Shown here: positions 7,057 through 40,589 of the stretch, piece by piece
Position numbering within the stretch: the stretch's first letter is position 1
Layout: each line of letters opens with the position of its first letter
Source of the DNA: a virus
Taxonomy: Duplodnaviria > Heunggongvirae > Uroviricota > Caudoviricetes
DNA: 40,589 bases
Reading direction: 5' to 3' (one strand)
Virus record (IMG/VR): IMGVR_UViG_2718217867_000004
Span: 1 to 40,589 of that record
Made by a program: the position numbers and the translations under genes
The notes under the pieces: model-generated
What the model saw: only the letters and a program-made list of their open reading frames with translations
The model's database searches: none
What the model was told of the DNA's origin: nothing

Positions 7057-7058
7057 TG

Positions 7059-9199: not shown

Positions 9200-9212
9200 G
9201 GAATTTCTCCTG

Positions 9213-10274: not shown

Positions 10275-10275
10275 C

Positions 10276-11331: not shown

Positions 11332-11341
11332 AAAAATCCCA

Positions 11342-11366
11342 TAAAAAAAGCCGCATCATGCGGCTG
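11342..11366 (-). terminator. Rho-independent terminator between decoration and capsid genes
   Basis: Minus-strand hairpin AGCCGCATGATGCGGCT followed by a T7 run. Confidence 0.5.
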
Positions 11367-11386
11367 TCAGGCTGTCAGAGGGGAGA

Positions 11387-14856: not shown

Positions 14857-14864
14857 CGCTCACC

Positions 14865-15116
14865 TCAGTAACGCACGCTCAGAGACCTTCTCGTCCTTAT
14901 CCCCAGCGCCCGCTGGAGCGTCGCGATCAGCGCCAGCAAATCAGCACTGCTGGCCTGTGAATAAGTCACGGTGCGCGTGCCGTCTCCCTGTGCATAGGAG
15001 AAACTCACGCCACGCCGCCCTGAAAGCAGCTCAATATAGGCCGCCTGAGCTTCATTCAGTGCCGTCTTCAGTTGTTCTTTTGACATTCCGGCAAACACGC
15101 CGGGGGTATTCATCAT
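14865..15116 (-). CDS. Head-tail joining protein gpW-like
   Basis: 83 aa ORF between terminase large subunit and portal, the conserved gpW position. Confidence 0.7.
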   Translation of the reverse strand: MMNTPGVFAGMSKEQLKTALNEAQAAYIELLSGRRGVSFSYAQGDGTRTVTYSQASSADLLALIATLQRALGIRTRRSLSVRY

Positions 15117-17092
15117 CGTCTCACTCCTGCAAGCCTCATATGCAGCGGTATTTTCTTACGGGGTATCTCCGGTGCTTTTGCGCCCGGCATACTTAAACTG
15201 ATTTTTTCTTCCGGCTGCGCGGGAGGCGGCTCCAGGAATGACAGATCCTGCGCCGCCCGTTCAGCCAGACGGTTCAGTTTCAGACCGTGATGCAGCAGCC
15301 CCTTCAGGGCCGCGTAACCGTACACCATGCAGTCCAGCGCCTCATTCGCCCGTCCGGCAGACAGCTCCCAGACACGGTACACCTGCCCGCCGTTCTCCTT
15401 ACGCACCAGACGCTCAGAGAGCAGCTGACTGAAATAATGCAAATCCAGAAACGACGGAAAATGGATACAGCCTGCGGCAGGCGCGCCTGCCGGATCCGGC
15501 TCAATATGGAGCCGGTGCCTGATGTCGTCCTTCGCGGAGTTCACCCCCAGAATGACGGGGCGAAAGGATTTCCGGTTGCGGGAAGAAACACTGCGCGTCG
15601 GCCAGACGGGATTACGTTTGCCGCCAGTGGCGGACTCACCTTTTGTCGCCCAGATACGACGCCCGATACGCGCCTTCGAGAACTCATACACTTTGTTGGT
15701 GTGATGACCGCCCGAGTCATGGCAGACCGCCGAGAGCGTCAGCCCGAAACCGTCAGCCCGCCGCCAGACCTGCTTCAGATACGCATCAAGGCGCTCCCAC
15801 GGCTCTTCTGTTTCAAGGTCACCAAAAATCACGTCATGCGCAATCACCCAGCATTCTTCGTTCATGCCCCAGCCGAGAACGGTGATTTCGAAGCGGTCAT
15901 CCTGCGTATCCACCCCGGCGGTCAGCAGGAGCACGCCATACGGCACCTCCGCTCCCCAGACCTCGACACGGGCAATCAGCCGCTGTTCACTCATCGCAAA
16001 CTCGCCTGCATCCTCGTAAGGCTCGCCCAGCGTGGTATTGATGAATGTCTGGCGCATCAGCGGATCGTCCTTCACCCTCAGCCATTCGGCGACCAGATTC
16101 GGCCAGGAGGCATTTGAGTTCGGGCTGTAGCCCGTCCAGATATGAAAACCGGCATGCCCCCTGAATGGTGCACCGGCACGCCATTCGCCTTTTGCCAGCA
16201 TCCCGGGCAGTTCACTGTGCACAATCACACAGCCGTGGTGACGGCACAGATAGTAAGCGGTCTCCGGCAGCCCGTTACCTTCGCTGTCCTTTTCCCACTT
16301 GATGCCGTAAGGGGTGCTTTTGCTGCCCCACTCCAGCACCTGATATTCACCGCAGTGAGGACAGGGCACGAAGTAGCGGCGCTGATCGCTTTCCAGCCAG
16401 GCTTTTTCAATACGGCTCACGCCTTTCACGGTTGGCGTTGAGCCGAGAACAATCTTGCGGTTCCAGAAGGTTTCGGAACGTTTTGTTCCCAGCGCAATCT
16501 GATCCCCTTCGGACCCTGCGCCCCCTGCCGGATACCCGTCCACCTCATCAAAAAGGATGATGCGGCATGTGATACGGCGAAAACCGCCGGGGGAGTTGGC
16601 CCCGACCAGCGTGAGGTTTGCGCCGTTGGAAAAGGTTTTGCGAAGAATGGTCTGGTTGCTGTTTTTTGCCTTCGGGTCGCCGCTGATGGCTGCCAGCACC
16701 GGCGTGTCGCGCAACATCGGGGCAATTTCGATTTTACTGTAGTCTTCGGCATCCTCCACCCTCGGCTGAACCACCAGGATGGAGGACGGATCATGTGCCA
16801 GGTAATAGCCCACCACATGGTCAAGAATTTTCGTGTATCCCACACGGGCTGATTTCATCACAGACACATACGTGACTGACGGGTCGGTGATGGCATCCAT
16901 TATGCCGTCCTGATAGGGATAGGAGCGGAATTTCCCCGTCTGGGCACTGGTCTCACGGGACAGTACAGCGAAGGTGTTGGCCCACTGGCTTAAGGATAAT
17001 GGCGGCGGAGGCGCAAGATAACGCGGACACGAAAGCAGCGCCTCCTCAAACTGTATCTCCGTGGGTTTCGCGCCTGTCAAATGCAAGTTCAT
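15113..17092 (-). CDS. Terminase large subunit (lambda gpA family)
   Basis: 659 aa; overall sequence typical of gpA-type terminases; overlaps the small subunit gene. Confidence 0.95.
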   Translation of the reverse strand: MNLHLTGAKPTEIQFEEALLSCPRYLAPPPPLSLSQWANTFAVLSRETSAQTGKFRSYPYQDGIMDAITDPSVTYVSVMKSARVGYTKILDHVVGYYLAHDPSSILVVQPRVEDAEDYSKIEIAPMLRDTPVLAAISGDPKAKNSNQTILRKTFSNGANLTLVGANSPGGFRRITCRIILFDEVDGYPAGGAGSEGDQIALGTKRSETFWNRKIVLGSTPTVKGVSRIEKAWLESDQRRYFVPCPHCGEYQVLEWGSKSTPYGIKWEKDSEGNGLPETAYYLCRHHGCVIVHSELPGMLAKGEWRAGAPFRGHAGFHIWTGYSPNSNASWPNLVAEWLRVKDDPLMRQTFINTTLGEPYEDAGEFAMSEQRLIARVEVWGAEVPYGVLLLTAGVDTQDDRFEITVLGWGMNEECWVIAHDVIFGDLETEEPWERLDAYLKQVWRRADGFGLTLSAVCHDSGGHHTNKVYEFSKARIGRRIWATKGESATGGKRNPVWPTRSVSSRNRKSFRPVILGVNSAKDDIRHRLHIEPDPAGAPAAGCIHFPSFLDLHYFSQLLSERLVRKENGGQVYRVWELSAGRANEALDCMVYGYAALKGLLHHGLKLNRLAERAAQDLSFLEPPPAQPEEKISLSMPGAKAPEIPRKKIPLHMRLAGVRR

Positions 17093-17663
17093 TCAGCGCC
17101 TCGTAAATCAGTTCCTGCAATGCCGCCGTGAATCCCTGATCGTCTGTCATCCCCGCCAGCGCCCGCAGACGGGGACCATGTTCCGGCGCAAGGGCAACAA
17201 GGCGCGTCCTCACCCGGGTATACTCCGCCCCGACCCGCTCAATGATGGGTTTCCAGGGAAGCAGTGTTCCTTTCTTTTCGTCATACTCGAGTTTTGCCAG
17301 CAGCGCGAAGTAGTTCTCTTTCATGGTTCTGGCTTCATCGAGCGTCATCATGGCTCCGTGGCTGGCAATGAACTGTTCGACCCGTGCTTCTTTCGATACA
17401 TCAGAGGAGTCATCGTACAGGGCAATGCTGTTACCTTCGTTGTTACCCGGAGTGTTACCTTCGGATGTTACCCTGTTACCTAAAGTGTTACCTTTTTGCT
17501 CATTTTTTATTCGGGTAACAGTTTTCCGGTAACGCCGGATCCGCTCGTTTGAGGCATCAACATCGATGTCCTCACCGTCCAGAACCAGCCAGCCACGGGC
17601 CTTCCACGCCGTTACCGTCTTGCGACTGACACCGTGAAGTTTTGCGAATTCCGCCTGATTCAT
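17046..17663 (-). CDS. Terminase small subunit (Nu1-like, N-terminal HTH)
   Basis: 205 aa starting MNQAEFAKLHGVSRKTVTAWKARGW (HTH comparable to lambda Nu1); contains a GNT-type peptide repeat encoded by GGTAACA nucleotide repeats. Confidence 0.8.
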   Translation of the reverse strand: MNQAEFAKLHGVSRKTVTAWKARGWLVLDGEDIDVDASNERIRRYRKTVTRIKNEQKGNTLGNRVTSEGNTPGNNEGNSIALYDDSSDVSKEARVEQFIASHGAMMTLDEARTMKENYFALLAKLEYDEKKGTLLPWKPIIERVGAEYTRVRTRLVALAPEHGPRLRALAGMTDDQGFTAALQELIYEALNELAFDRRETHGDTV

Positions 17664-17690
17664 CTGTTACCCTCTGTTACCTGTTACCCA
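17664..17690 (-). repeat. Three tandem GGTAACAG repeats immediately upstream of the Nu1 start (candidate cosB/terminase-binding sites)
   Basis: Minus strand reads GGGTAACAGGTAACAGAGGGTAACAG-ATG; six more copies of GGTAACA(N) lie inside Nu1 at about 17440-17500. Confidence 0.5.
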
Positions 17691-17766
17691 AATTTCAAAA
17701 TTTTATAGCTAGCGAAACACCGCGCTCGCGCAATGCCCGTGCAATAAGGTCTCCAGGAAGGACCCG

Positions 17767-17886
17767 TTACCCTGCCAGGCGACAGTGTCGACACCCGCTT
17801 GCGGTTTCAAAAATCTCAAGATAACGATAAATCACAATGCCATCACAAAACCCTGTGATGATTTTTTCACGACTGATGGTTTTCAT
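17767..17886 (-). CDS. Small hypothetical protein (39 aa)
   Basis: ATG with a GAGGAA SD 6 nt upstream, directly after the stop of the upstream 67-aa gene; not in the ORF track (below the size cutoff). Confidence 0.25.
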   Translation of the reverse strand: MKTISREKIITGFCDGIVIYRYLEIFETASGCRHCRLAG

Positions 17887-17894
17887 ATATTTCC

Positions 17895-18098
17895 TCACGT
17901 TTCATCAGACAATAACGCAACCAGATGGCAGGTCGCCTCCTTATTGAGAGGGAACACGAGCGTTTCACCTCCTGTGCGGTGGATATACAATGTCCTGCCC
18001 CCGGATTCATCTCTTTCAACATCAAGATATGAAACAACGGGGCGGCATATCGCTATGCCGCGTTCGCTAATGTGAGTTTTGTTTATGAGGTTATTCAT
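17895..18098 (-). CDS. Hypothetical protein (67 aa)
   Basis: ORF whose ATG overlaps the stop of the upstream ORF (ATGA). Confidence 0.4.
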   Translation of the reverse strand: MNNLINKTHISERGIAICRPVVSYLDVERDESGGRTLYIHRTGGETLVFPLNKEATCHLVALLSDET

Positions 18099-18427
18099 GG
18101 GAATACTCTCCGAATTAAATACACTTCTGGAAAAGATACCACTCTGAAAAAAACTTCAGTCAGTCCCACAGGAAATAGAAGATTTGAAGCGAAGAGTTGC
18201 TGAACTGGAATCGAACCATTGTTCTGCAACCAGCGCACAATTCTGTCCCAAATGCCAAAAAGCGTCTTTTCAGCTCGACAGAACTGAAAATGATCCAACG
18301 TTTGGAGTATTAGGCCTTCAGCGGGACATTTATGTTTGCAGAGAGTGTGGTTACTCTCGCCATGAATCACGTTAATAAAAACGCTGCTGGCACGTTCTTT
18401 CTTCAGGGCAACAATGCCCTGCATCAC
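18095..18427 (-). CDS. Hypothetical protein (110 aa)
   Basis: ATGA overlaps at both ends with flanking same-strand genes support translation; composition is unremarkable; an antisense zinc-ribbon-like ORF (18184-18375, +) competes for this locus. Confidence 0.35.
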   Translation of the reverse strand: MMQGIVALKKERASSVFINVIHGESNHTLCKHKCPAEGLILQTLDHFQFCRAEKTLFGIWDRIVRWLQNNGSIPVQQLFASNLLFPVGLTEVFFRVVSFPEVYLIRRVFP

Positions 18428-19089
18428 TTCGCCGTCTTTAAAGCCTGTTCAAGCGCCACACTCAGCTCCGTCTTCATGAGACGCGATGCCATGTTGTGTG
18501 CCAGCGCCTGATAACCCAGTACCGGCGTGACCGGCAGTGCATCACCAAAACGTATCAACAGCTTTGGTGAGCGGCTTTTTTTGCGGGGAGCGCGTGTGCC
18601 ATTGGGGGAGCGTTTTCTCCGCTTCCTGGTTTTTGCCACTTTTTTCGCTTTCTTACGCTGCCAGACGCCACCAACATCCTCACCATAGTTGTTCGTCACC
18701 TTACCGATGAACACATCCGGTCTGGCCTTCAGCTGTTGCAGTTTTGCCTTTGGCAGGTTGCCGTATTTGTTCAGCCGGATATTTTTCGGGTTCAGTACAG
18801 CTTTCTGCCCCTCACCGAGATAATGCAGCCCGCCCACCTCAAAGGGTTCAAGGTAAGGCACGGCGGTATCCATGATGAACACCCGACCGGTCAGATTGTC
18901 CCTTGTTGCCCCTTTTGAGCGCACCGAGTTCACGGTGAACGGCGTCGGGTTATCCAGCTTCCGGCGAAGGTTTTCTTTCTCTGCCGCTTCAATTTTTCTC
19001 ACCGTGGCAGTGATGGCGCGCGCAGTGGCAAAACGCACCTGCTTCTGCATTCCCAGAAGCTGTCTGTGAAGGTCGTTAAGGTCAGCCAT
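18424..19089 (-). CDS. Basic hypothetical protein (about 221 aa)
   Basis: Start placed at MADLNDL (AGGTGG SD); Lys/Arg-rich segment KKAKKVAKTRKRRKRSPNGTRAPRKKSRSPK suggests nucleic-acid binding; no recognisable catalytic motif. Confidence 0.5.
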   Translation of the reverse strand: MADLNDLHRQLLGMQKQVRFATARAITATVRKIEAAEKENLRRKLDNPTPFTVNSVRSKGATRDNLTGRVFIMDTAVPYLEPFEVGGLHYLGEGQKAVLNPKNIRLNKYGNLPKAKLQQLKARPDVFIGKVTNNYGEDVGGVWQRKKAKKVAKTRKRRKRSPNGTRAPRKKSRSPKLLIRFGDALPVTPVLGYQALAHNMASRLMKTELSVALEQALKTAK

Positions 19090-20942: not shown

Positions 20943-21653
20943 ATTCAGATTTGATATGTATGGGACGTGGAGCGAATACAACAAAGCCCGTCAGAACAGG
21001 CCTCAAAAAAAAGCCAGCTCTGGGGAGGCTGGCAGGAATGAAAAATGACTCTCGAGATTATTCATCACAAAACGGATTACTTTGCGCTGAACAGAATGCT
21101 CCTTCATCGTATATTTCTCAACTGGAGAGACTCATTTTCAGATTTTGTTATCTGTCATATTGACAGTCCCCACTTCTCCGGGGTAGTGAAGTAAGTGGCG
21201 TTTGCTTCCTGTAAATACCCGAGGGTTATCCATGATCTCTTGTATAAGGCATTCCTCAGTGGACTAATTTCGGAGTTATCATCCCGTTCAATTTCATCCA
21301 GGATCCCCTACTAAATAAGTTCACCATTCTTCAGGTGGCAGTTTCTTTCAGCCAGCCGTGCACTCAACAGCATATTCTTGTCGGACTCAGAATAACTCCT
21401 GCAAATGCAACAATGATGGCCGTCGCCCCAATAACCTTGTGCTGCCCGCATCTGTAAAAAGCGAAGGCCCCAAATTACCAGAATAAAACTGAGCAGATAT
21501 CCGACCTTCGTTACCGCATTGACTTCATTGTCTCATACACCAGGAGCAGCGAATTGCAAAGGATGAAGCACGCCCCATGAAGATTCTCCCAAAAACTATA
21601 ATTGTAAAAACCAAAGTAGCGGAAGCGAGCACTTGTAACCCCGAACTTTGAAT

Positions 21654-21680
21654 AAAAAAAAACCGCCTGGAGCGGCGGTT
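21654..21680 (-). terminator. Rho-independent terminator downstream of the tRNA pair
   Basis: Minus-strand hairpin ACCGCCGCTCCAGGCGGT followed by T9. Confidence 0.6.
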
Positions 21681-22032
21681 AATGGCATATAAAAACGCAT
21701 GATTTAATTTTATTCAGAAGTGTCGGGTGCCACCCGAAGCATCCAGCCCCACAAGGATACTGTGGTTTCCCGCTAAACCGACTCTTTAAACCACCCTCGC
21801 ACTGAGGAACACCTCTGTAGTGTTTTTACAACACCGGGATAGTGCATCATCAGCCCTGCCAGGAAATACTAAATCTCCACCGATAATGCACCATTCCATT
21901 GTTGTAAAAAATCAGCACTGAGGCTATAACCGACCTCAAACCATAGCCTGAGGACCAAAGATGTATTAAAACAACCTGCCCCCACGTAAAAAAACACGCC
22001 AGTGCTGTATAATTCGTGTTGCCAGAATAATG

Positions 22033-25739: not shown

Positions 25740-26789
25740 TTACCCAAGCACGCCGGTTGCAAAGGCGTGATCAAGAAAACGAAAAATTAAATCAACCTGG
25801 GAACCATGCTTTTCTTCGAACGCCTGCGGATCTGCATGAAGTTCGTTGTGATGTTCCCGACACAGCGGCAACGTAAAAATATCGTGGGCTTTTGTCCCCA
25901 TCCCGCCCTGACCGTGACCAATCAGGTGATGGGGATCGTCTGCTGGCTTACCACAACACGTACACGGCTGTGTCTTCACCCAGCGCGTATATTTCTCATT
26001 TACCCAACGGCGACGTTTAGGCCGCCTCATGAAAGATTCCGGTGACTCCGGATCAACGGTGATGCTGACCACCGTCTTTTCCTGTGGTGGGTTTTGTTGC
26101 TGGTGGGCGTGAGATGGCTGCACAAGATTTTTTGTGCGCTGCTTCAGTACGCTGGTGGCTGTCTGCTCTCCCGGTATGATGTCGCTTTCGCGGTACACCG
26201 AGCGGATTTTTTCCGCACGCAATCCCAGAGAACGACGTAATACTGCCTCCGGAAGCGCGTCCGCCACTTGATTGCAGACCGCCCACCAAGATAATTCAGC
26301 TAGCGATAACTCTCGCTCCTGTGTGCCATTCATTGCGTGACGGATGACGTCAATCATCCATGCTGACAAGTTTTGGTGAGCTAGTAGCCCGAGTGATTCG
26401 GAGGTCTGGTCACGCAACTGGTTGTCGCAGTGCCAGCACAACACCATCGCGCCAGAGTCATAACGGTGAATGACGGTTTCACTGTGGTGATAATCGCCGT
26501 GTGGCCACTGGCAGGATTTAACATGGCGCAGTAACCAGTGAGACAATGCGCCAGCGCCACCAGCAGCACGAATCACTCGTTCGTCGCTGAAAAATGACAG
26601 TAATGATTTATCCTCCGCCAGCGGCTGGCGAACGGCAGGGACGACTCCGGACGGCAGACCGAGCATGCTTTTCGGTTCCGGCTCCACCAGCACTCGAGGA
26701 TTGTGAAATACCTGCATGGATTCACGACCTGGTTTAAGGACCACCAGCCCGAGTTCCGGTACCAGAACAGGTCGAAGTAATACCCGCAC
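25740..26789 (-). CDS. DUF968-like protein with C-terminal HNH-type zinc-binding motif
   Basis: 349 aa; C-terminal CTCCGKPADDPHHLIGHG...CREHHNELH; nin-region position upstream of rusA; start codon uncertain (GTG in the track). Confidence 0.7.
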   Translation of the reverse strand: MRVLLRPVLVPELGLVVLKPGRESMQVFHNPRVLVEPEPKSMLGLPSGVVPAVRQPLAEDKSLLSFFSDERVIRAAGGAGALSHWLLRHVKSCQWPHGDYHHSETVIHRYDSGAMVLCWHCDNQLRDQTSESLGLLAHQNLSAWMIDVIRHAMNGTQERELSLAELSWWAVCNQVADALPEAVLRRSLGLRAEKIRSVYRESDIIPGEQTATSVLKQRTKNLVQPSHAHQQQNPPQEKTVVSITVDPESPESFMRRPKRRRWVNEKYTRWVKTQPCTCCGKPADDPHHLIGHGQGGMGTKAHDIFTLPLCREHHNELHADPQAFEEKHGSQVDLIFRFLDHAFATGVLG

Positions 26790-26790
26790 G

Positions 26791-27063
26791 TTACCTCCAG
26801 ATCCGTTGCTGGAATGTGCGGGACGGACGCGGTGGGCGTTCGGAGTAAGGAAGCCTGACGGAGATTATCCAGTGACGATAATCGAGGCTGAGGGCTTTCT
26901 TAATCTCGTATCCGTGTCTGCGGTAGCACTGAATTAGCCATTCAGCTTGTTCTTCAGTACATGGGGGATGCTGGTACCAATCAGATTTAAATGCGCGAGA
27001 GCGCCGCCCGTGCCTGCTGGCAAGGTCGGTATCAGAATTGTGATGTTTGGTATTGTGCGCCAT
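26791..27063 (-). CDS. Hypothetical nin-region protein
   Basis: Start placed at the first ATG (MAHNTKHH); the track's longer ORF needs a TTG start. Confidence 0.45.
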   Translation of the reverse strand: MAHNTKHHNSDTDLASRHGRRSRAFKSDWYQHPPCTEEQAEWLIQCYRRHGYEIKKALSLDYRHWIISVRLPYSERPPRPSRTFQQRIWR

Positions 27064-27249
27064 CTGTTTTCTCTGCAGGCGCAGCAGGTGCCAGTTGTTC
27101 AGGCTGGCGTGCGGCAATATTGTCTCTGATTTCTGTTGTCGTCAACCGCTTCTGCGCTTACTCACTTGATGAGTGAGGCGATTAACTTTACTATTTACTT
27201 AACAGGTTTTTCCTGTACCACAATTCCCCAATACAGGAGGCCATCATGA

Positions 27250-27582
27250 GTGACGACAAAAAAATTGAGTTCAGCACCAGCTGATGTGTTGAATGCTTTA
27301 CTCCATCGCCATCAGAATATGCAACATCTTGCAACACAGGAAAGCGTTGATAACTTACGTCGCGAGATTGATAGTCGATTTAATGCTTCACAAGAAAACG
27401 TTGATAATCTGCGTCGGGAAGTCGATAGTCGCTTTAACTCTTTGCAAAATCAGTTAATGTCGGTTGATAAGCGTCTGGATAAACTGGAAACCAAGTTTGA
27501 CCGACTCCAGTGGTTTATCGTTGCCGCTGCTCTGGCACTCATCTTTAAAGATTACATCCTCAGGTTTATGGGTGCTTTATAA
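27250..27582 (+). CDS. Coiled-coil protein with C-terminal transmembrane helix (membrane-anchored)
   Basis: 110 aa; internal repeat (SVDNLRREIDSRFNASQ / NVDNLRREVDSRFNSLQ), C-terminal hydrophobic helix; GTG start 10 nt after an AGGAGG SD, with an ATG four bases upstream in another frame; convergent with hok. Confidence 0.55.
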   Translation: MTTKKLSSAPADVLNALLHRHQNMQHLATQESVDNLRREIDSRFNASQENVDNLRREVDSRFNSLQNQLMSVDKRLDKLETKFDRLQWFIVAAALALIFKDYILRFMGAL

Positions 27583-27585
27583 AAC

Positions 27586-27609
27586 CATAAAAAACCCGCC
27601 GAAGCGGGT
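27586..27609. terminator. Bidirectional terminator between the coiled-coil gene and hok
   Basis: Hairpin CCCGCCGAAGCGGG flanked by an A-run upstream and TT downstream on the plus strand; strong T-run on the minus strand. Confidence 0.6.
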
Positions 27610-27678
27610 TAAGTGCGGGTGCGTTGAGGATGCCTGACACATCAGAGGTGGCGAGGGATTTCTCCCCCGCCTGGTCTC

Positions 27679-27834
27679 TTACTCCTCAGGTTCGTAAGCT
27701 GTGAAGACAGCGACCTCCGTCTGGCCGGTTCGGATTCGTACCTCGCAGAGGTCTTTCCTCGTTACCAGTGCCGTCACTATGACGGTTAAACAGATGACGA
27801 TCAGGGCGATTAACATCGCCTTTTGCTGCTTCAT
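27679..27834 (-). CDS. hokD: Hok/Gef family type I toxin (HokD/RelF-like)
   Basis: 51 aa MKQQKAMLIALIVICLTVIVTALVTRKDLCEVRIRTGQTEVAVFTAYEPEE: single TM helix plus the conserved Hok motif; matches the HokD sequence as I recall it. Confidence 0.9.
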   Translation of the reverse strand: MKQQKAMLIALIVICLTVIVTALVTRKDLCEVRIRTGQTEVAVFTAYEPEE

Positions 27835-27892
27835 AGCCTGCTTCTCCTTGCCTTTCGGCACGTAAGAGGCTAATCTTCAGTTGTCGAGACAT
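27686..27892 (-). CDS. mok-like overlapping reading frame (modulator of killing)
   Basis: 68-codon ORF starting upstream of hok and overlapping it in another frame, as in hok/mok/sok loci. Confidence 0.45.
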   Translation of the reverse strand: MSRQLKISLLRAERQGEAGYEAAKGDVNRPDRHLFNRHSDGTGNEERPLRGTNPNRPDGGRCLHSLRT

Positions 27893-28264
27893 AAGACTGG
27901 CCTCACTTCGATTTATAGTCGGGTGGGGCTTTTCTCTATCTGCCGTTGGTGTTCATGCCCGAGGCAGATAGCCTCAAGCACCCGCAGCAATTCTACTTAA
28001 CTCCCATCACCTCGCCAATATGAAATCAATCAGAAAGGTGATCCATGAGAACAATAACAAGACAATAAATTGCCATTACAGCCACAATAGCCAGCGCGCA
28101 TTTCAGAACCAGCACGATAACCTCCCACATTTAGCGTGCACGTGCATGATAAATATGTGTCCGTGTTATCACAGCAGCAATAGAAGATAAGATTTCGTTA
28201 TGTCGATATTTAACTCTGTGCGTTAAGCGCCCTGCTTATGTACACAAGGCGCGTTCTTAATGCC

Positions 28265-33420: not shown

Positions 33421-33845
33421 TCAATGCACCGCCACGGCATTTCCTGCCGGACCACCGCGATTCATCTGGTCGAACAGAACGATCGCTGATGCAACGAACT
33501 CATCGATATCTTTCACCAGCCGATCCCGTCGCTCGACAATCTCCCGGTGATACTCCGAACTGTGACTACGCATTCGGGCCACCAGCGGTGGCGGCATTGC
33601 CTTTTCGATCGCTGGTAACAACGCCTGAATTTTTTAACCGCATCAGGAGTATCTTTCTCCACCCAGCGGAAAATTTTCTGAGTATTGCGAGCCAGGGCTT
33701 CTGGGTGTGAATCGTCGTACAGTTCCGGAAACGTCATACCCAGCTCAAAATAAGCCCGGGTTATTTCAGCCGCCGGAACTTTTTCACCGTCCGGATACGC
33801 CCAGGCATTCATCGCCATGCGGATGTGTTCATGCTTGATTTTCAT
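33421..33845 (-). pseudogene. YdaT-like gene split by a frameshift in an A6 tract
   Basis: N-terminal ORF (33513-33845, MKIKHEHI...) and a +1-frame ORF (33421-33621) overlap; inserting one A in the AAAAAA run at about 33628-33633 joins them into a single ORF of about 140 aa. Confidence 0.55.
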
Positions 33846-34057
33846 GAATCATTCTTTCCTTCGTTCGAGGTGTTATCCTGCTTCTTGTAAAGTTCTGGAT
33901 TGTATTTCAATTCACCGTTAGTAATTTCATCCAGCTCCATTGCGCGAAGTTTGGGAATAACTGCTTTCCACCGCACAACAGCCACATGTGAAATTCCAAG
34001 AGCCTCAGCTACTAGTCGCTTTTTTTTGAAATAGCGCAGAACATCATCTTTGAACAT
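33842..34057 (-). CDS. Cro-like HTH regulator (YdaS/Cro family)
   Basis: 71 aa with HTH KKKRLVAEALGISHVAVVRWK; divergent from cI across an operator-bearing gap; ATGA overlap with the YdaT-like gene. Confidence 0.8.
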   Translation of the reverse strand: MFKDDVLRYFKKKRLVAEALGISHVAVVRWKAVIPKLRAMELDEITNGELKYNPELYKKQDNTSNEGKNDS

Positions 34058-34085
34058 AAAACTCTCCTGTTATTTCGAACAAGAG

Positions 34086-34150
34086 GGTAACAATAGTTAC
34101 ATAATGATGTCAACCATAGTAACATTACTTGGTAGTAACATTGGTTACAT
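34086..34150. promoter_or_regulatory. OR-like operator cluster between cro and cI
   Basis: Three sites with inverted GTAAC/GTTAC half-sites (GGTAACAATAGTTAC, GTAACATTACTTGG, GTAACATTGGTTAC) in the divergent promoter region. Confidence 0.6.
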
Positions 34151-34823
34151 GAAAAACACTATCAGCGAACGTATTCGGAATCGTCGAAAAGACGTTGGAC
34201 TAACTCAACAGCAGGTTGCGAAAGCAATCGGCATATCTCGCGTATCCGTAACAAAATGGGAAAATGGCTCTTCAAAACCTGACGGTGAGAATTTGCATCT
34301 GCTGTCAAAATTGCTTTCCAAATCTCCTGAATGGATTCTTTATGGAAAGGATGGTCACGATAAAACCGACGATCTGCGTCTGAATCAGCACCTTTACATT
34401 AGTGACAACATCGCCCGGTTGCCCGTTTTAACGTGGGAACAGGCTGGTTATTGGGATATGAGTTGCCCAGTAACCGAGATTCCTGGTATTAAGAATTGGG
34501 TTGATGTCATGACAAAAACCGCTGAAAACTCTTTTTTATTGCGCGTTGAGGGAGATGCGATGACGAACTCTAACGGCCTCCCAACCATCCCCGACGGATC
34601 TACCGTGCTGATCACTCCATGCTCAAGTAACATTAGAGAACTGGTGGGAAAAATAATCTTAATCCAATTGGAAGGAACGCCGAACGTAACACTAAAAAAA
34701 GTTGCGATTGACGGACCAAACATCTATCTGCTGTCACTGAATCCGCTTTACAAACCCATTGAACTGAATGGTGGTTACACTATTAAAGGTAAAGTTTCAC
34801 AAATACATCAATATTTAGACTGA
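34149..34823 (+). CDS. cI-like repressor (N-terminal HTH, C-terminal S24 LexA-like peptidase domain)
   Basis: HTH (LTQQQVAKAIGISRVSVTKWENG) and S24 autocleavage domain (VEGDAMT...KGK); start chosen at MKNTIS just after the operators; the track ORF begins at 34050. Confidence 0.85.
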   Translation: MKNTISERIRNRRKDVGLTQQQVAKAIGISRVSVTKWENGSSKPDGENLHLLSKLLSKSPEWILYGKDGHDKTDDLRLNQHLYISDNIARLPVLTWEQAGYWDMSCPVTEIPGIKNWVDVMTKTAENSFLLRVEGDAMTNSNGLPTIPDGSTVLITPCSSNIRELVGKIILIQLEGTPNVTLKKVAIDGPNIYLLSLNPLYKPIELNGGYTIKGKVSQIHQYLD

Positions 34824-34828
34824 GTCAG

Positions 34829-34855
34829 AACCCGCATTCATTGCGGGTTTTTTTG
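34829..34855 (+). terminator. Rho-independent terminator after cI
   Basis: Hairpin CCCGCATTCATTGCGGG followed by T7. Confidence 0.6.
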
Positions 34856-34874
34856 CGGCCCTATATGTACCTTT

Positions 34875-34915
34875 TGCAACATCATGTTGACTTTGCTGGT
34901 AACTCTTGTTACCTT
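34875..34915. promoter_or_regulatory. OL-like operator sites / early promoter region
   Basis: Palindromes CAACATCATGTTG and GGTAACTCTTGTTACC (same GTAAC half-site as OR) upstream of the rightward early operon. Confidence 0.5.
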
Positions 34916-35095
34916 GACAACATACCAACCCACCCCGCCCCACAGAACGCCGGGCAATACTTCGAGTTACCAGGCAGGTGATCAGGGGTCAATGTAGCCA
35001 GCCCGAGGCATTCGAAAGTGACGGCAGGGTTCAACTTTTAACTATGCAGCAGGTTTTTGTTCCGCTACCCCGGCGATAAGGGGAAATGAGGTCAA

Positions 35096-35248
35096 CATGG
35101 AAACTATCGATCTTGGCAACAACGAATCTCTGGTGTGCGGCGTGTTTCCCAACCAGGACGGAACGTTCACGGCGATGACGTATACAAAAAGCAAAACGTT
35201 TAAAACCGAATCTGGCGCGCGTCGTTGGTTGGTAAGACATTCAGGTGA
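35096..35248 (+). CDS. Small protein, YdfA-like (50 aa)
   Basis: METIDLGNNESLVCGVFPNQDGTFTAMTYTKSKTFKTESGARSLVGKTFR with a GAGG SD; position and size match ydfA of the Qin dicB operon; below the track cutoff. Confidence 0.45.
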
Positions 35249-35253
35249 ATAAA

Positions 35254-35400
35254 ATGAACGAAACAGAATTAAAACACGTTATCGCTCTGCTTCTGGAGGA
35301 TGCAAAACGCCTCCAGCAACTGGAACCAAATGCAGGCACTGAAGCCCGCATCTGGCTGGCATTGCACGCTATTGAGTCAGGTCGTGATGATGAAGGTTAA
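35254..35400 (+). CDS. Small protein, YdfB-like (48 aa)
   Basis: MNETELKHVIALLLEDAKRLQQLEPNAGTEARIWLALHAIESGRDDEG with an AGGTGA SD 5 nt upstream. Confidence 0.45.
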   Translation: MNETELKHVIALLLEDAKRLQQLEPNAGTEARIWLALHAIESGRDDEG

Positions 35401-35598
35401 GCATCATCTAAGTTTTTTACATAGCGCCCATTAGATTCGGTAACAAGAACTCCGGGATTTTTCTTAACTTTTGAGGCCACTGATTCAGCAAGGTCAGCAA
35501 CAGATTCTTTGTCTTCATTCTTGCTTGAATATATATATTCGGCATTAGGAAGACGGTAGGTGTTCCCTAAAGAGGTTGTAATCGTTCTGGAGAATCCC

Positions 35599-35760
35599 AT
35601 GAAGCTTATCGTAATCAGCGGAACTGGAATCGCGAAGTTCGATCCTGACTGTAAATTTTGCCATTTTATCCTCCATTTAGGTTCTGGGTTAGAAATGGAG
35701 ACCAATACGGGGCTACGTGTGGTCGTGCGCCGGACACGGATAAGAATCCGGCACTGACAG
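35599..35760 (+). CDS. Small hypothetical protein (53 aa), possible ydfC-position gene
   Basis: ATG with a GGAG SD 6 nt upstream, on the operon strand; an antisense 67-aa ORF (35397-35600) competes for the adjacent AT-rich segment. Confidence 0.3.
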
Positions 35761-36000
35761 TTTACTGAAAGGATATATCCCTGAAAAGTCAGGGCATAAC
35801 ACGAAAGCGTACGGCGAAGGCCTTCACCTATGAGGTTTGTCGTTAAATTACTTCGACCGTGCGCTTCCGGTTGTGGCAATCCGCGAAATGGCGCGGCGGT
35901 AAGTATGGCGGGGTTATTCCTTCCCCCGTTGAGGACACCGGGTTGTCAGGTTGACCATACGCTTAAGTGACAACCTCGCTGCAACGCCCTCTGTTATCAA

Positions 36001-36058
36001 TTTTCTGGTGACGTTTGGCGGTATCAGTTTTACTCCGTGACTGCTCTGCCGCCCTTTT
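36001..36058 (+). ncRNA. dicF: DicF small RNA
   Basis: TTTCTGGTGACGTTTGGCGGTATCAGTTTTACTCCGTGACTGCTCTGCCGCCCTTTTT matches the DicF sequence as I recall it, with its intrinsic terminator; lies upstream of dicB. Confidence 0.85.
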
Positions 36059-36228
36059 TAAAGTGAATTTTGTGATGTGGTGAATGCGGCTAAGCGCACG
36101 CGGAACAGTTAAAACCAAAAACAGTGTTATGGGTGGATTCTCTGTATCCGGCGTTAATTGTTAACTGGTTAACGTCACCTGGAGGCACCAGGCACCGCAT
36201 CACAAAATTCATTGTTGAGGACGCGATA

Positions 36229-36411
36229 ATGGAAACGTTATTACCAAACGTTAATACGTCTGAAGGTTGTTTTGAAATTGGTGTCAGAATCAGTAACCCT
36301 GTATTTACTGAAGATGCCATTAATAAGAGAAAACACGAACGGGAGTTATTAAATAAAATATGCATTGTTTCAATGCTGGCCCGTTTACGCCTGATGCAAA
36401 AAGGACGCTGA
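36229..36411 (+). CDS. dicB: Cell division inhibitor DicB
   Basis: 60 aa METLLPNVNTSEGCFEIGVRISNPVFTEDAINKRKHERELLNKICIVSMLARLRLMQKGR; GAGGA SD; closely matches DicB as I recall it. Confidence 0.85.
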   Translation: METLLPNVNTSEGCFEIGVRISNPVFTEDAINKRKHERELLNKICIVSMLARLRLMQKGR

Positions 36412-36413
36412 CA

Positions 36414-36617
36414 ATGAATACAGCATTTGCACTCGTTCTGACAGTTTTTCTTAATACAGGCGAACCAGTCGATCTTGTTATTGGTATACATGACTCAATG
36501 AAAGAATGCATGGCTGCCGCAGCGGAACAGAAAATTCCCGGCAACTGTTATCCGGTTGATAAAGTTATTCGCATGGACAATAACGAAATCCCGGCAGGAC
36601 TTAAAGCAGCACCGTAA
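36414..36617 (+). CDS. ydfD: YdfD-like small membrane (lysis-associated) protein
   Basis: 67 aa MNTAFALVLTVFLNTGEPVDLVIG... with an N-terminal hydrophobic helix; AAGGA SD; immediately after dicB as in Qin. Confidence 0.75.
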   Translation: MNTAFALVLTVFLNTGEPVDLVIGIHDSMKECMAAAAEQKIPGNCYPVDKVIRMDNNEIPAGLKAAP

Positions 36618-36697
36618 TTAATATCCGGTTTCATTTTTAGATGCCAGCAATGGCAGGGATTTGTTCACCCTTAAATCTGTAATGAGGTTAAAACAAA

Positions 36698-39169
36698 ATG
36701 AGTAAAGTCTTTATTTGCGCCGCCATTCCGGACGAACAGGCAATAAAGGAAGAAGGTGCAGTTGCTGTAGCCACTGCCATTGAAGCCGGTGACGAACGCC
36801 GCGCCCGTGCCAAATTTACCTGGCAATTCCTGGAGCAATATCCGGCTGCTCAGGACTGCGCTTATAAATTTCTTGTCTGCGAGGATAAACCCGGCATGCC
36901 CCGCCCTGCTATCGACTCCTGGGATACCGAATATATGCAGGAAAACCGCTGGGATGAGGAATCCGCTTCCTTTATTCCGGTCGAACCAGAATCCGATCCG
37001 ATGAACGTCAATTTTGACAAGCTGTCCCTTGAAGTACAGAACGCGGTCCTGGTTAAGTTCGGTACATGTGAAAACATCACCGTTGATATGGTGATTAGTG
37101 CTCAGGAATTACTGCAGGAAGACATGGCAACATTCGATGGGCATATCGTTGAGGCATTGATGAAAATGCCTGAAGTTAACGTCATGTATTCAGAGCTTAA
37201 GCTGCTCGCCATCGGGTGGGTTAAACATAAATGTAAGCCGGGTGCAAAATGGCCTGAGATCCAGACAGAATTACGCACCTGGAAAAAACGTCGCGAAGCC
37301 GAACGCAAAGAAACCGGGAAATACATGTCTGTTGTTGATCTTGCCCGCGCCAGAGTCAACCGGCAGAACACTGAAAACTCAGTAGCGAAAATCCCCCCAG
37401 CCACTGCCACCATTCGTCGCGAATACAAGCAGACATGGAAAACACTGGATGATGAACTGGCCTACGCTCTGTGGCCTGATGACATTGATGCCGGAAACAT
37501 TGACGGCAGCATCCATCGCTGGGCAAAAAATGAAGTTATCGACAACGACCGCGAAGACTGGAAGCGTATCTCGGCATCAATGCGCAAACAGCCTGATGCC
37601 CTTCGCTACGACCGCCAGACTATTTTTGGCCTTGTCCGTGAACGTCCGATCGACATTCACAAAGACCCTGTGGCACTGAACAAATACATTACTGAATACC
37701 TGACTACAAAGGGCGTGTTTGAAGATGAAGGAACAAATCAGAGCGCAACTGATACTCTCTCGTCGCCAGTACCAGAAACTGATGCAGTGGAAACGGCAAT
37801 TCCGGACAACGAAAAAACCGAATGCAAAGTGGAAGTCGAACCATCTGTAGAGCGTGAGGGGCCGTTCTACTTCCTCTTCACAGATAAAGATGGCGAAAAA
37901 TATGGTCGTGCAAACAAACTTTCTGGTCTGAATAAGGCGCTGACTGCAGGGGCTACTGAAATCACGAAAGAAGAATATTTTGCCCGCAAAAACGGTACAT
38001 ACTCAGGCTCACAACAAAATACTGGTGCATCTGACACGACCGCACAACCAGAGCCGGTAAAAGTTACCGCTGAAGAAGTAAACAAAATTATGCAGGCAGC
38101 CAATATCAGCCAGCCTGACGCCGATAAGTTGCTTGCTGCCTCTCGCGGAGAATTTGTTGCAGGGATTAGCGACCCGAATGATCCGAAATGGGTGAAGGGG
38201 ATTGAAACCCGCGATTCTGTAAACCAGAACCAGCAAGAATCGGAACAGAACGACCAAAAAGCGGAACAAAACAGCCCAAATGCGTTACAAAACGAGCCAG
38301 AAACGAAACAATCCGAACCAGTAGCGCAACAGGAACCGGAAAAAGTCTGCACCGCCTGCGGTCAGAGCTGTGGCGGCAACTGCCCTGATTGTGGCGCGGT
38401 GATGGGCGACGCAACATACCAGGAAACATTCGATGAAGAGAATCAGGTTGAAGTTCAGGAAAATGATCCGGAGGAAATGGAAGGCGCTGAACATCCACAC
38501 AAGGAGAACCCTGGCGGCAATCAGCATCACGCCAGCGATAATAAAACTGGCGAGGCGACAGATCCCTTAATTGAGGTGAACGGTCATCATAAGCTCACAT
38601 CCACCAGCAGAGCGGGGATTCATCTGATGATCGACCTTGAAACCATGGGAAAAAATCCCGATGCCCCGATTATCTCAATAGGCGCAATATTTTTCGATCC
38701 ACAAACCGGAGATATGGGACCGGAATTTAGCAAGACCATCGATCTGGATACTGCTGGCGGAGTCATTGATCGTGACGTCATTAAATGGTGGCTGAAGCAA
38801 TCACGTGAGGCGCAATCTGCCATTCTGACCGATGAAATTCCGTTAGATGATGCACTACTGCAATTGCGGGAATTTATCGACGAAAACTCCGGTGAATTTT
38901 TTGTTCAGGTCTGGGGAAATGGAGCCAACTTCGACAACGTGATTTTACGCCGTTCATATAAACGGCAGGGTATCCCCTGCCCGTGGCGCTACTACAACGA
39001 TCGCGATGTACGCACAATCATTGAACTGGGAAAATCCATAGACTTCGATGCCAGGACGCCTATTCAATTCGAAGGCATACGCCACAATGCGCTGGATGAT
39101 GCCCGTCACCAGGCGAAATACGTTTCAGCAATCTGGCAAAAACTGATCCCGAATCAGTCTGATTTTTAA
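36698..39169 (+). CDS. Large multidomain protein with C-terminal DEDDh 3'-5' exonuclease domain (YdfE-like)
   Basis: 823 aa; C-terminal IDLETMG (Exo I), WGNGANFD (Exo II), RHNALDDARH (Exo III); central Cys4 cluster CTACGQSCGGNCPDCG; acidic/Gln-rich linkers; position corresponds to ydfE in Qin. Confidence 0.85.
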   Translation: MSKVFICAAIPDEQAIKEEGAVAVATAIEAGDERRARAKFTWQFLEQYPAAQDCAYKFLVCEDKPGMPRPAIDSWDTEYMQENRWDEESASFIPVEPESDPMNVNFDKLSLEVQNAVLVKFGTCENITVDMVISAQELLQEDMATFDGHIVEALMKMPEVNVMYSELKLLAIGWVKHKCKPGAKWPEIQTELRTWKKRREAERKETGKYMSVVDLARARVNRQNTENSVAKIPPATATIRREYKQTWKTLDDELAYALWPDDIDAGNIDGSIHRWAKNEVIDNDREDWKRISASMRKQPDALRYDRQTIFGLVRERPIDIHKDPVALNKYITEYLTTKGVFEDEGTNQSATDTLSSPVPETDAVETAIPDNEKTECKVEVEPSVEREGPFYFLFTDKDGEKYGRANKLSGLNKALTAGATEITKEEYFARKNGTYSGSQQNTGASDTTAQPEPVKVTAEEVNKIMQAANISQPDADKLLAASRGEFVAGISDPNDPKWVKGIETRDSVNQNQQESEQNDQKAEQNSPNALQNEPETKQSEPVAQQEPEKVCTACGQSCGGNCPDCGAVMGDATYQETFDEENQVEVQENDPEEMEGAEHPHKENPGGNQHHASDNKTGEATDPLIEVNGHHKLTSTSRAGIHLMIDLETMGKNPDAPIISIGAIFFDPQTGDMGPEFSKTIDLDTAGGVIDRDVIKWWLKQSREAQSAILTDEIPLDDALLQLREFIDENSGEFFVQVWGNGANFDNVILRRSYKRQGIPCPWRYYNDRDVRTIIELGKSIDFDARTPIQFEGIRHNALDDARHQAKYVSAIWQKLIPNQSDF

Positions 39170-39232: not shown

Positions 39233-39481
39233 ATGGCAAGACTTATTCTGCTCACTGAGTGGGCAAAAGAGGAATTCAGCGATCCGGTCCCTACTCCGGG
39301 CACGTTAAGTAAATACGCTAAAGCCGGAATGATATTTCCTCTCCCCAAAAAAGTTGGAAGACACTGGCGAGTGGATCCGCGAGCTCGCTTTGTCGGAATG
39401 GTAAACAAGCCGGAGGTGATCGCCACAGATCACCCTGCTTTAAAGAGGATACTGGAAGATGGCACGCCCGCGAAAATATAA
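39233..39481 (+). CDS. xis: Excisionase (Xis-like DNA-binding protein)
   Basis: 82 aa starting MARLILLTEWAKEEF; immediately upstream of and overlapping the integrase gene. Confidence 0.7.
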   Translation: MARLILLTEWAKEEFSDPVPTPGTLSKYAKAGMIFPLPKKVGRHWRVDPRARFVGMVNKPEVIATDHPALKRILEDGTPAKI

Positions 39482-40589
39482 AACCGCTGTTCCGGGATTA
39501 TCTCCGTATTTTGACAAAAGAAATAACAAAGTTTACTGGCGTTACAGGCATCCCATCACAGGTAAAAATCATGGACTCGGCAGTATTGACCAGAAACTGG
39601 CGGAAACCATTGCAGCAGAAGCGAACAGCCGTCTTGCCAGACAACAAATGGAGCAAATGCTCAGTCTGCAGGAGAAAATTATTAATGATACCGGCGGTTC
39701 ATCAACCGTTTCCATTTTTCTGAATAATTACAGAAAAATTCAACAGGAAAGATATGAAAACGGAGAAATCAAACTCAACACGCTGAAACAGAAAGCGGCC
39801 CCTCTCAGGGTTTTTGATGAACGTTTTGGCACCAGACCGTTAGATGCCATAACCGTAAAGGATGTGGTATCGGTGCTGGAAGAGTACAAGTCCAGAGGAC
39901 ATAACAGAATGGGACAAATTTTCAGGAAGGTACTGATCGATGTTTTCCGGGAGGCTCAGCAAACGGGCGATGTCCCGCCAGGCTTTAACCCTGCAGAATC
40001 GGCAAAAAAACCACAGGTGCGGATATCAAGACAGCGACTGACTTTTGATGAGTGGACGATGATTTATAACGCAGCGGAAAAGGATGGTTACTTTTTACAG
40101 CGCGGTATGCTGCTGGCACTGATGACAGGCCAGCGCCTTTCAGATATTTGCAAAATGCAATTTTCGGATATCCGGGATGGTTATCTTCATGTCGAACAGC
40201 AAAAAACAGGAACCCGGATTGCCATCCCTCTGGCTCTGCGTTGCGATAAATTAAATCTCACCCTGGATGATGTGGTGTCATCCTGTCGCGATTGCGTTCT
40301 TAGTCCGTGGCTATTGCACCATCATCACGCGAAAGGGACAGCTAAGCGCGGCGGGATGGTTAAGCCAGCAACGTTAACCGTTGCATTTAAAAAAGCGCGG
40401 GATTCTGTGGATTACAACTGGCGTGCTAATGGCACCCCACCCTCTTTCCATGAGCAGAGATCTTTATCAGAGCGATTGTTCAGAGAGCAGGGAATTGATA
40501 CCCAAATTTTGCTGGGTCATTCGAATCAAAAAATGACCGATATTTACAACGATGCACGCGGCAAGGAGTGGAAAAAACTGGTCATTTGA
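39459..40589 (+). CDS. int: Tyrosine integrase, lambda Int family
   Basis: 376 aa; C-terminus ...FHEQRSLSERLFREQGIDTQILLGHSNQKMTDIYNDARGKEWKKLVI parallels the lambda Int catalytic region (HELRSLSARLY...LLGHKSDTMASQYRDDRGREWDKIEI); stop is the last codon of the window. Confidence 0.95.
   Translation: MARPRKYKTAVPGLSPYFDKRNNKVYWRYRHPITGKNHGLGSIDQKLAETIAAEANSRLARQQMEQMLSLQEKIINDTGGSSTVSIFLNNYRKIQQERYENGEIKLNTLKQKAAPLRVFDERFGTRPLDAITVKDVVSVLEEYKSRGHNRMGQIFRKVLIDVFREAQQTGDVPPGFNPAESAKKPQVRISRQRLTFDEWTMIYNAAEKDGYFLQRGMLLALMTGQRLSDICKMQFSDIRDGYLHVEQQKTGTRIAIPLALRCDKLNLTLDDVVSSCRDCVLSPWLLHHHHAKGTAKRGGMVKPATLTVAFKKARDSVDYNWRANGTPPSFHEQRSLSERLFREQGIDTQILLGHSNQKMTDIYNDARGKEWKKLVI

Follow-up and report, generated by a model that had tools for sequence, protein, structure and literature searches.

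An intact DicF-DicB-YdfD cassette in the early left operon of a largely complete lambdoid prophage of Escherichia coli

We observed that the 617-bp segment at positions 36001-36617 of the window, by which we mean the whole stretch of DNA that was analysed (40,589 nucleotides), carries the small RNA gene dicF, the division-inhibitor gene dicB and a ydfD-like gene. The three genes are intact, they follow one another in this order, and they lie downstream of a CI-type repressor gene and of a promoter-like site. The locus is very probably orthologous to the dicBF module carried by the Qin prophage of E. coli K-12, in the place where this module is usually found, i.e., the PL-type leftward early operon of a lambdoid prophage. 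The features of the region, with coordinates given on the window, are the following.

34107-34823, plus strand: CI-type repressor gene, with HTH_3 and Peptidase_S24 domains (RefSeq start; the ATG at 34150 is a possible true start)
34829-34854, plus strand: putative terminator of the repressor gene, a hairpin with a T-run (AACCCGCAttcatTGCGGGTTTTTTT) right after the repressor stop codon, read from the sequence
34887-34915, plus strand: PL-like promoter, TTGACT-17 nt-TACCTT, overlapped by a palindromic operator, GTAACTCTTGTTAC (34899-34912)
35097-35252, plus strand: ydfA homologue (DUF1391), first gene of the operon (PF07151, 99.9 bits; aligns with K-12 ydfA)
35254-35379, plus strand: ORF at the ydfB position, a partial pseudogene (RefSeq: "incomplete; missing C-terminus")
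35397-35676, minus strand: antisense GhoS-like (DUF2622) gene, split by a frameshift, in the place of ydfC (RefSeq and Pfam)
35724-36001, plus strand: untranslated leader in common with Qin (K-12 alignment)
36002-36054, plus strand: DicF small RNA, a 5' single-stranded tail and a terminator hairpin, followed by TTTTT
36057-36212, plus strand: STnc100-related spacer RNA, a closing helix of about 20 bp (36062-36082/36192-36212) around three hairpins
36229-36411, plus strand: dicB, coding for a predicted MinC-dependent division inhibitor of 60 aa (PF05358, K-12 identity)
36414-36617, plus strand: ydfD-like gene, 67 aa, with its start codon 2 nt after the dicB stop codon
36698-39169, plus strand: intact exonuclease gene, 823 aa (RefSeq "exonuclease"; Rv2179c-like 3'-5' exoribonuclease domain, 219 bits in Pfam)
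39233-39481, plus strand: excisionase gene, xis (RefSeq)
39459-40589, plus strand: integrase gene, int (RefSeq), ending at the window edge, with attR and intact ompW just beyond

The DicF sequence matched the Rfam family RF00039 at 36003-36054 of the plus strand with 76.7 bits (gathering score 48, E=2.3e-15), and the alignment covered model positions 1-52 of 52. When compared with K-12 dicF (b1574), all 53 of its 53 bases were identical, those of the 5' and 3' pairing regions included. A T-run (36055-36059) is found directly 3' of the hairpin, which is the layout of an intrinsic terminator. The dicB product gave 128.3 bits with Pfam PF05358 (gathering score 27, E=8.6e-38), its residues 1-59 being aligned to positions 1-59 of the 62 of the family. 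It is 92% identical to K-12 DicB, from which it differs by five substitutions (four internal and one at the C-terminal residue) and by a stop codon that comes two codons earlier and makes the C-terminus 2 aa shorter. A longer dicB with a GTG start (95 aa, 36124-36411) was rejected, because the extension crosses a conserved RNA structure and Pfam matches the 60-aa form only. The ydfD-like product matched DUF1482 (PF07358) over residues 4-61 with 81 bits (gathering score 25, E=5.9e-23) and is 73% identical to K-12 YdfD, with a C-terminal extension of 4 aa. The sequence-only reading of this DNA had placed DicF, DicB and YdfD exactly within 36001-36617, and had named a comparison with Qin as the test that could refute it. 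That comparison, once carried out, bore the identification out, the gene order and the spacers also being the same in the two loci.

DicF lies in a long untranslated stretch, with dicB starting 175 nt downstream. In the alignment with K-12, the Qin homology restarts at about 35724; between about 35853 and the start of dicB, DicF included, it is nearly complete and exceeds that of the coding regions. The near-identity flanking DicF extends for about 150 nt upstream, where the leader from about 35853 onwards shows 1 indel and 1 substitution, and for 175 nt downstream. In K-12, RNase III generates a 190-nt DicF precursor, and RNase E also takes part in the processing (PMC10448788). The last 137 nt or so of the leader (from about 35865) correspond to the 5' part of this precursor, whose 5' end was mapped here by length only. 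A 46-aa ORF at 35830-35970 was rejected as coding, since the 1-nt indel breaks its frame in K-12.

The window corresponds to positions 897254-937842 of the chromosome of E. coli PapM-36-2 (NZ_CP050646.1), a strain from baboon stool collected in the Gambia (1.7-kb query, 100% identity), and a search of that genome with the 1.7-kb query showed the cassette region to be single-copy. According to the RefSeq annotation, the prophage is about 50 kb long (887.6-937.9 kb of the same record) and is inserted at the 3' end of ompW. Its left end is a displaced 126-bp fragment of the ompW 3' end (887632-887757 of the record), and its right end is int, which adjoins intact ompW at 937888. When the two ends were aligned, the shared ompW segment was found to make att repeats at both, in the form of an imperfect direct repeat with two exact 23-bp blocks. 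The genes of integration, recombination and replication are annotated as intact (int, xis, exonuclease, immunity, YdaU-type and ATPase genes, RusA and Q), as are two tRNAs, the holins and an M15 endolysin. The same is true of the virion genes, namely terminase, portal, protease, decoration and capsid proteins, sheath, tube, tape measure, baseplate and fibre, which in the annotation make a tail of the contractile type.

With both att sites present and all modules uninterrupted, the prophage has, at the level of annotation only, the gene content of a complete one. RefSeq flags six pseudogenes, all of them in accessory regions: an IS-type integrase-core fragment, a DUF551 fragment, a partial hypothetical gene, a frameshifted TraR/DksA gene, the partial ORF at the ydfB position and a frameshifted ORF6N gene. 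DNA comparison revealed no close relative of the structural module among deposited phages. The annotation therefore describes a prophage that appears largely complete, which differs from one that is inducible. The earlier description of a complete-looking prophage stands as far as the main modules and the two att repeats are concerned, and has to be qualified for the six accessory pseudogenes and for a serine-to-alanine change in the repressor, which is dealt with below.

The repressor was assigned on the basis of its Pfam scores (60 bits for HTH_3 and 62.9 bits for Peptidase_S24), and a P22-Cro-like gene diverges from it. Perfect copies of the palindrome GTAAC-N4-GTTAC occur only three times in the window (at 34087, 34135 and 34899); when one mismatch was allowed, 6 matches were found as compared to 0.56 expected. 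Two of the perfect copies are located between cro and cI, and the third overlaps the -35/-10 region of the PL-like site. We infer from this arrangement that the site at 34887-34915 is probably PL/OL. Its -10 element (TACCTT) is a weak one. The consensus scan for promoters and terminators, run over 33700-36800, was of no use: neither the PL-like site nor the DicF terminator was reported by it, and the hairpin at 34829-34854 is absent from the list of the simple terminator scan. Being downstream of the CI-type repressor gene and of the PL-like site, and ahead of the exonuclease, xis and int genes, the cassette occupies the early operon, as had been proposed.

The part of the operon that precedes DicF is remodelled. 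In the alignment with K-12, the Qin homology of the ORF at the ydfB position ends a few codons in, and no Pfam match was found for this ORF. The ydfC gene is absent; it and most of ydfB have given way to some 330 bp that Qin lacks. In this segment, 35397-35600 is annotated in RefSeq as coding for a DUF2622 protein. The two GhoS-like fragments, when taken separately, gave no match in Pfam, whereas the conceptually fused frame gave 19.4 bits with Pfam GhoS (E=0.0011), just below the cutoff of 21. The earlier claim of an intact cassette in the early operon holds for the three genes, and does not extend to the operon upstream of them, where ydfB is truncated and ydfC is missing. In other genomes, genes for Rha, GhoS and DUF1883 proteins are inserted between ydfA and DicF, with dicB intact downstream. 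Because such varied inserts are found with an intact dicB, the interval between ydfA and DicF looks like a site that tolerates moron genes. The remodelling upstream of DicF could nevertheless alter the stability or the processing of the transcript.

A working model of the cassette can be drawn by analogy with K-12, where the control of the operon by DicA and the processing of DicF have been described (PMC10448788). In the lysogen, the repressor would hold the operon off at PL. Upon derepression, a single transcript would start upstream of ydfA, and RNase III would release from it the 190-nt DicF precursor, with a 5' end which, judging by length, would be near 35865. RNase E would then produce the 5' end of the 53-nt DicF, whose hairpin and U-run would terminate part of the transcripts (PMC10448788). 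Those transcripts that read through would undergo RNase III cleavage within the long helix that directly follows DicF (PMC5069750), and the resulting mRNA would code for DicB, YdfD, the exonuclease, Xis and Int. Both xis and int are located beyond the DicF terminator within this operon, and so some transcripts must read through it in any functional relative of this phage.

As for the products, DicF would block the translation of ftsZ and would also repress xylR and pykA (PMC5069750). K-12 DicB acts through MinC both on division and on ManYZ, and protects cells against lambda; the protein of this prophage would likewise bind MinC, so that no Z-ring is formed, and inhibit ManYZ, with a resulting protection against DNA entry of the lambda type (PMC6832061). 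K-12 YdfD, when overexpressed, lyses cells by inhibiting IspG, and its homologue, if made in quantity, would do the same (PMC8835842). The division-inhibitor activity of this DicB and the lysis activity of this YdfD are thus predictions made from the K-12 proteins. The net effect would be a transient arrest of division, and possibly the exclusion of competing phages, during derepression, and a role of the cassette in host takeover or in phage exclusion is a plausible extrapolation.

Other explanations have to be weighed against an orthologous and working module. There is a negligible chance that the three features are accidental or distant look-alikes of DicF, DicB and YdfD, a view refuted by the Rfam and Pfam scores (with E values from 2.3e-15 for DicF to 5.9e-23 for DUF1482 and 8.6e-38 for DicB) and by the alignments with K-12, in which DicF is identical base for base. 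It might also be that the remodelling cuts DicF off from the promoter of the operon, for instance by antisense transcription, or because transcripts end, within the GhoS-like insert, and that DicF and dicB are silent or transcribed from some other start. The 330 bp or so with an oppositely oriented gene in place of ydfC and most of ydfB would be in keeping with this, all the more as DicF in K-12 comes only from the transcript starting upstream of ydfA (PMC10448788). Uncoupling is improbable, though, considering that no terminator-like site was predicted on the plus strand between 35250 and 36000, that the region of the 190-nt precursor is intact and that xis and int, further downstream, need the same transcript; moreover, the Rha, GhoS and DUF1883 inserts occupy the same position elsewhere with dicB intact downstream.

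More weight is due to the view, which falls only a little short of an even chance, that the cassette is intact and the prophage itself is locked or cryptic. The module would then be a domesticated locus that modulates the host and is expressed rarely or stochastically, as in Qin, rather than part of a productive lytic programme. Alignments with lambda cI and with PDB 3bdn showed that the catalytic-serine position of the repressor, corresponding to Ser149 of lambda cI, is held by alanine (codon GCG, 34557-34559; VEGDAMT vs. VEGNSMT). The Ala-Gly cleavage site and the lysine are kept, so that of these three features of an autocleavable S24 repressor the serine is the one missing. Loss of the nucleophile in LexA or in lambda cI abolishes autocleavage, and therefore the alanine found here makes classical SOS induction, driven by RecA, doubtful for this prophage. 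Serine is present at this position in 72 of 78 repressor homologues, including a cluster at 88% identity; alanine is found only in the nearest clusters (99%, 89% and, in Salmonella, 70% identity), plus one 170-aa fragment. Such a distribution, on the other hand, looks like that of a maintained lineage, which may use another route of induction, as Qin does with the Rem antirepressor (PMC10448788). No LexA box (CTGT-N8-ACAG) was found in the window's early region or ahead of the ORF6N gene near attL, nor did the early region and this ORF6N gene reveal any obvious antirepressor control that might compensate for the alanine. A locked prophage would also be consistent with the six flagged pseudogenes and with the lack, among deposited phages, of close relatives of the structural module at the DNA level. 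However, the pseudogenes are confined to accessory regions, and the genes for integration, immunity, replication, Q, lysis, head and tail are all annotated as intact, with an att repeat at either end.

The orthology with the Qin module, which we consider very probable, is seen in a common order (ydfA, then dicF, spacer, dicB, ydfD and the exonuclease gene, to be compared with ydfABC-dicF-dicB-ydfD-ydfE in K-12), in the identical DicF, and in a precursor region and a dicF-dicB spacer with only a few base differences between the two loci, next to 92% identity for DicB and 73% for YdfD. The differences concern what surrounds the cassette. This prophage has a 238-aa CI repressor that includes an S24 domain, whereas Qin has DicA, a 135-aa HTH-only protein with other operators. 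In place of the ydfB and ydfC of Qin there are a truncated ydfB and the antisense GhoS-like pseudogene. The exonuclease, xis and int genes are intact here, while in Qin ydfE/insD7 is disrupted by IS2 and intQ is also a pseudogene. Lastly, the lysis, head and tail modules are kept in this prophage, unlike in Qin.

The cassette was also found in deposited phages. Eight lambdoid phages, i.e., Tritos (OV696610), mEp460_ev081, HannyBb, PhiR42_1, vB_EcoS-640R1, vB_EcoS-813R8, vB_EcoS-689R5 and vB_EcoM-606R7, cover the entire 617 bp at about 90-91% identity (about 10% divergence), and their structural modules are unrelated to that of this prophage at the DNA level. Tritos has the order cI, three small ORFs, an annotated DicF, dicB, ydfD, a 2472-bp exonuclease gene, xis and int. 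It differs in that an ORF fills each of the three small-ORF positions that separate cI from DicF and correspond to ydfA-ydfC in Qin, and in that its CI repressor is short. The PPompW prophages of EHEC (LC5678xx; Nakamura et al., bioRxiv 10.1101/2020.11.04.367953) are integrated at the same locus, ompW, and resemble this prophage from int to the replication genes, where 45% of the right half of the window aligns at about 91% identity. Within this stretch, DicF and the 5' portion of dicB reach 95% identity, but the match ends inside dicB (positions 1-340 of the query), the ydfD part is different, and so are the structural and cargo genes. A functional parallel is offered by lambda kil, a small product of the early left operon that blocks FtsZ ring formation during induction (PMC3961180); its sequence is unrelated, it is without an sRNA partner, and it acts via ZipA/FtsZ rather than MinC.

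Among 5426 complete E. coli genomes, 3770 (about 70%) have the 617-bp cassette covered for at least 80%, and 4647 show at least a partial match, with a median of two copies per positive genome. Given this prevalence and its presence in sequenced phages, the cassette has to be regarded as ordinary. In 2016, the Vanderpool laboratory reported no DicB/DicF matches in about 2000 phage genomes, and read this as a hint that the operon persists mainly in defective prophages (PMC5069750). This hint is overturned by the eight deposited phage records that carry the whole cassette at about 90% identity. For the same reason, the contrast with the defective Qin prophage that the sequence-only reading implied is no longer new. 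DicB-dependent phage exclusion has been published as well (PMC6832061). The DicF-DicB-YdfD cassette of this prophage is, in short, already known, and is one more instance of a common and well-studied module. What it does offer is a natural dicBF operon that is still joined to intact recombination, integration and virion genes, under a CI-type repressor and not under DicA. The locus could thus serve for tests of the benefit that DicF, DicB and YdfD bring to a phage rather than to a cryptic remnant. What the operon does for the phage was asked when no phage genome carrying it was known (PMC5069750), and the deposited phages now provide an answer to that gap.

The spacer between dicF and dicB is 174 nt long, which is over a quarter of the 36001-36617 span, and is predicted to be structured (MFE z=-4.7). 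When compared with Rfam STnc100 (RF02076), it scored 37.7 bits (E=1.3e-6), without reaching the gathering score of 47; the related elements of K-12 (34.4 bits), P7 (43.0 bits) and Rac-SA53 (43.8 bits) also stay under this value. Hence, we refer to it as STnc100-like, and not as a member of the family. In the covariance-model alignment the spacer displays the STnc100 architecture, with a GGUGAAU...CACC closing helix and several hairpins, the last of which is CCnGGAGGCACCnGG. In an RNAalifold consensus of 18 representatives of this RNA element, obtained independently of that alignment, compensatory changes are seen in 13 of the 32 pairs. In K-12, RNase III yields a 72-nt DicF species from read-through transcripts (PMC5069750), and the published 3' end of this species, once mapped on the window, falls at 36073, in the 5' arm of the closing helix. 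The idea that the region of about 137 nt on the 5' side of DicF might be a second, degenerate element of the same kind, in which case DicF would be the processed 3' end of an STnc100-type RNA, was not supported by three tests. No second match to Rfam STnc100 was found in that region at E<=5; the covariance model built on 18 leaders (R1), run with the filters off, found nothing in it; and local alignment of the region with the full STnc100-like RNA aligned only the terminator hairpin (score 30, shuffle maximum 27, 0/500 shuffles).

The STnc100-like element, with its invariant core (GGTGAATGCGGCTnnGCGCACG ... GGAGGCACCnGGCACCGCA), is also found 10-40 nt upstream of two other genes, i.e., kilR in Rac-type and Stx phages, and tciA in P7 and D6. 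The tciA product is TerB-like and bears the homology annotation [quoted passage not shown]. The Rac-type kilR module has the same layout as the dicB one, in that a DicF-like hairpin RNA (34-41 bits, sub-threshold) precedes the element and a small division-inhibitor gene follows it. However, the 5' tail of that sRNA is different (CAUUGCUGUGUGUAGUCUU as compared to UUUCUGGUGACGUUU in DicF), and KilR is unrelated to DicB. In a scan of IMG/VR for the exact 22-nt core, a seed that biases the sample, at least 100 unique contexts were collected, and the first feature after the element was DicB in at least 44 of them, KilR in at least 18, a TerB-like protein in at least 6, a DicF-like sRNA instead of an ORF in at least 19, and other features in at least 13.

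On this basis we tentatively suggest, while granting that this has clearly the smaller chance of being right, that the spacer may be a mobile cis-acting RNA of the STnc100 kind, which recurs before unrelated phage genes annotated as division inhibitors (dicB, kilR and the P1-family tciA), usually behind DicF or a DicF-like terminator sRNA, and whose closing helix would be the RNase III site that parts the sRNA from the inhibitor mRNA. The element may thereby set the amount of toxic protein that is made. None of the papers searched connects the leader with STnc100, or dicB, kilR and tciA with one another through it. A relationship of Qin and Rac in the dicF region may already have been reported in 1994 by Faubladier and Bouche (J Bacteriol 176:1150). 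The leader that dicB, kilR and tciA have in common is the only part of this locus that might repay further work. If the suggestion is true, an sRNA, an RNase III-cut leader and a division inhibitor would form a conserved and exchangeable three-part module of the early operons of temperate phages.

The spacer between dicF and dicB contains a structured RNA that resembles STnc100 (Rfam RF02076), and the same type of element was found at other loci, outside the window.

36057-36212, plus strand: STnc100-like structured RNA of the dicF-dicB spacer (Rfam STnc100, sub-threshold; conserved fold)
L002 2933-3142, L004 2501-2616, L005 2505-2703 and L006 834-1023: STnc100-like element at comparison loci

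Compensatory changes were observed in 13 of the 32 pairs of the spacer RNA, whose structure is conserved. The published 3' end that RNase III gives to the 72-nt DicF (PMC5069750) falls inside its closing helix. In other phages the element is also located directly 5' of kilR and of tciA/terB-like genes. In Rac-type and Stx phages a DicF-like hairpin RNA just precedes the leader and kilR.

L006 790-844, L007 789-839, L008 752-806 and L009 751-806: DicF-like hairpin RNA (Rfam DicF) of the Rac-type and Stx kilR loci

This RNA scores 34-41 bits with the Rfam DicF model, whose gathering score is 48, and is thus sub-threshold; it differs from DicF in its 5' tail, CAUUGCUGUGUGUAGUCUU. Among the matches listed, 19 IMG/VR contexts carry a similar sRNA 3' of the element instead.

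A weak STnc100-like match and a neighbouring long hairpin lie in the interval from the pair of phage tRNA genes to the holin genes of the window, and Stx phages have stx and a canonical STnc100 at the position of this match. In the nin region, a hok/sok locus adjoins a truncated pseudogene.

21650-21923, minus strand: weak STnc100-like match (20 bits with R1, the covariance model made from 18 leader sequences; Rfam 19 bits, E=0.055) and neighbouring long hairpin
27829-27983, minus strand: hok/sok locus, hokD annotated (Rfam sok, 116.8 bits)
about 26576-27838: truncated IS-type integrase-core pseudogene

With respect to Qin, the ydfC position is occupied here by an inserted antisense gene; in other E. 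coli genomes this slot, between ydfA and DicF, holds Rha, GhoS and DUF1883 genes.

35397-35676, minus strand: antisense GhoS-like (DUF2622) gene, apparently frameshifted
1-19000, minus strand: head and contractile-tail module
L003 10221-11169, outside the window, beside attL: region of cargo genes, two of them encoding ORF6N-domain proteins and one an alpha/beta hydrolase

In the structural module the head genes are lambda-like and the baseplate genes Mu-like. At the DNA level, none of 50,697 phage records was closely related to this module; phiP27 resembles the prophage only in the methylase-lysis region. One of the two ORF6N-domain genes of the attL cargo is frameshifted, and no LexA box was found upstream of the cargo genes.

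The operators of this prophage's immunity type are probably three copies of the palindrome GTAAC-N4-GTTAC, each of them perfect; two lie in the cro-cI interval and the third overlaps the PL-like promoter.

34087-34100, 34135-34148 and 34899-34912: perfect palindromes
34107-34823, plus strand: CI repressor gene
34557-34559, within the CI repressor gene: codon of the S24 catalytic Ser, here Ala

The palindrome at 34135-34148 falls within the start of the repressor ORF annotated in RefSeq, which suggests that the true start is instead the ATG at 34150. At the position of the S24 catalytic Ser the repressor carries Ala; it retains the Lys and the Ala-Gly site. Ser is present at the nucleophile position in 72 of the 78 homologues, and the change to Ala is common to the closest clusters of the repressor, from E. 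coli and Salmonella (70-99% identity). Repressors with this substitution probably represent a non-autocleavable lineage.
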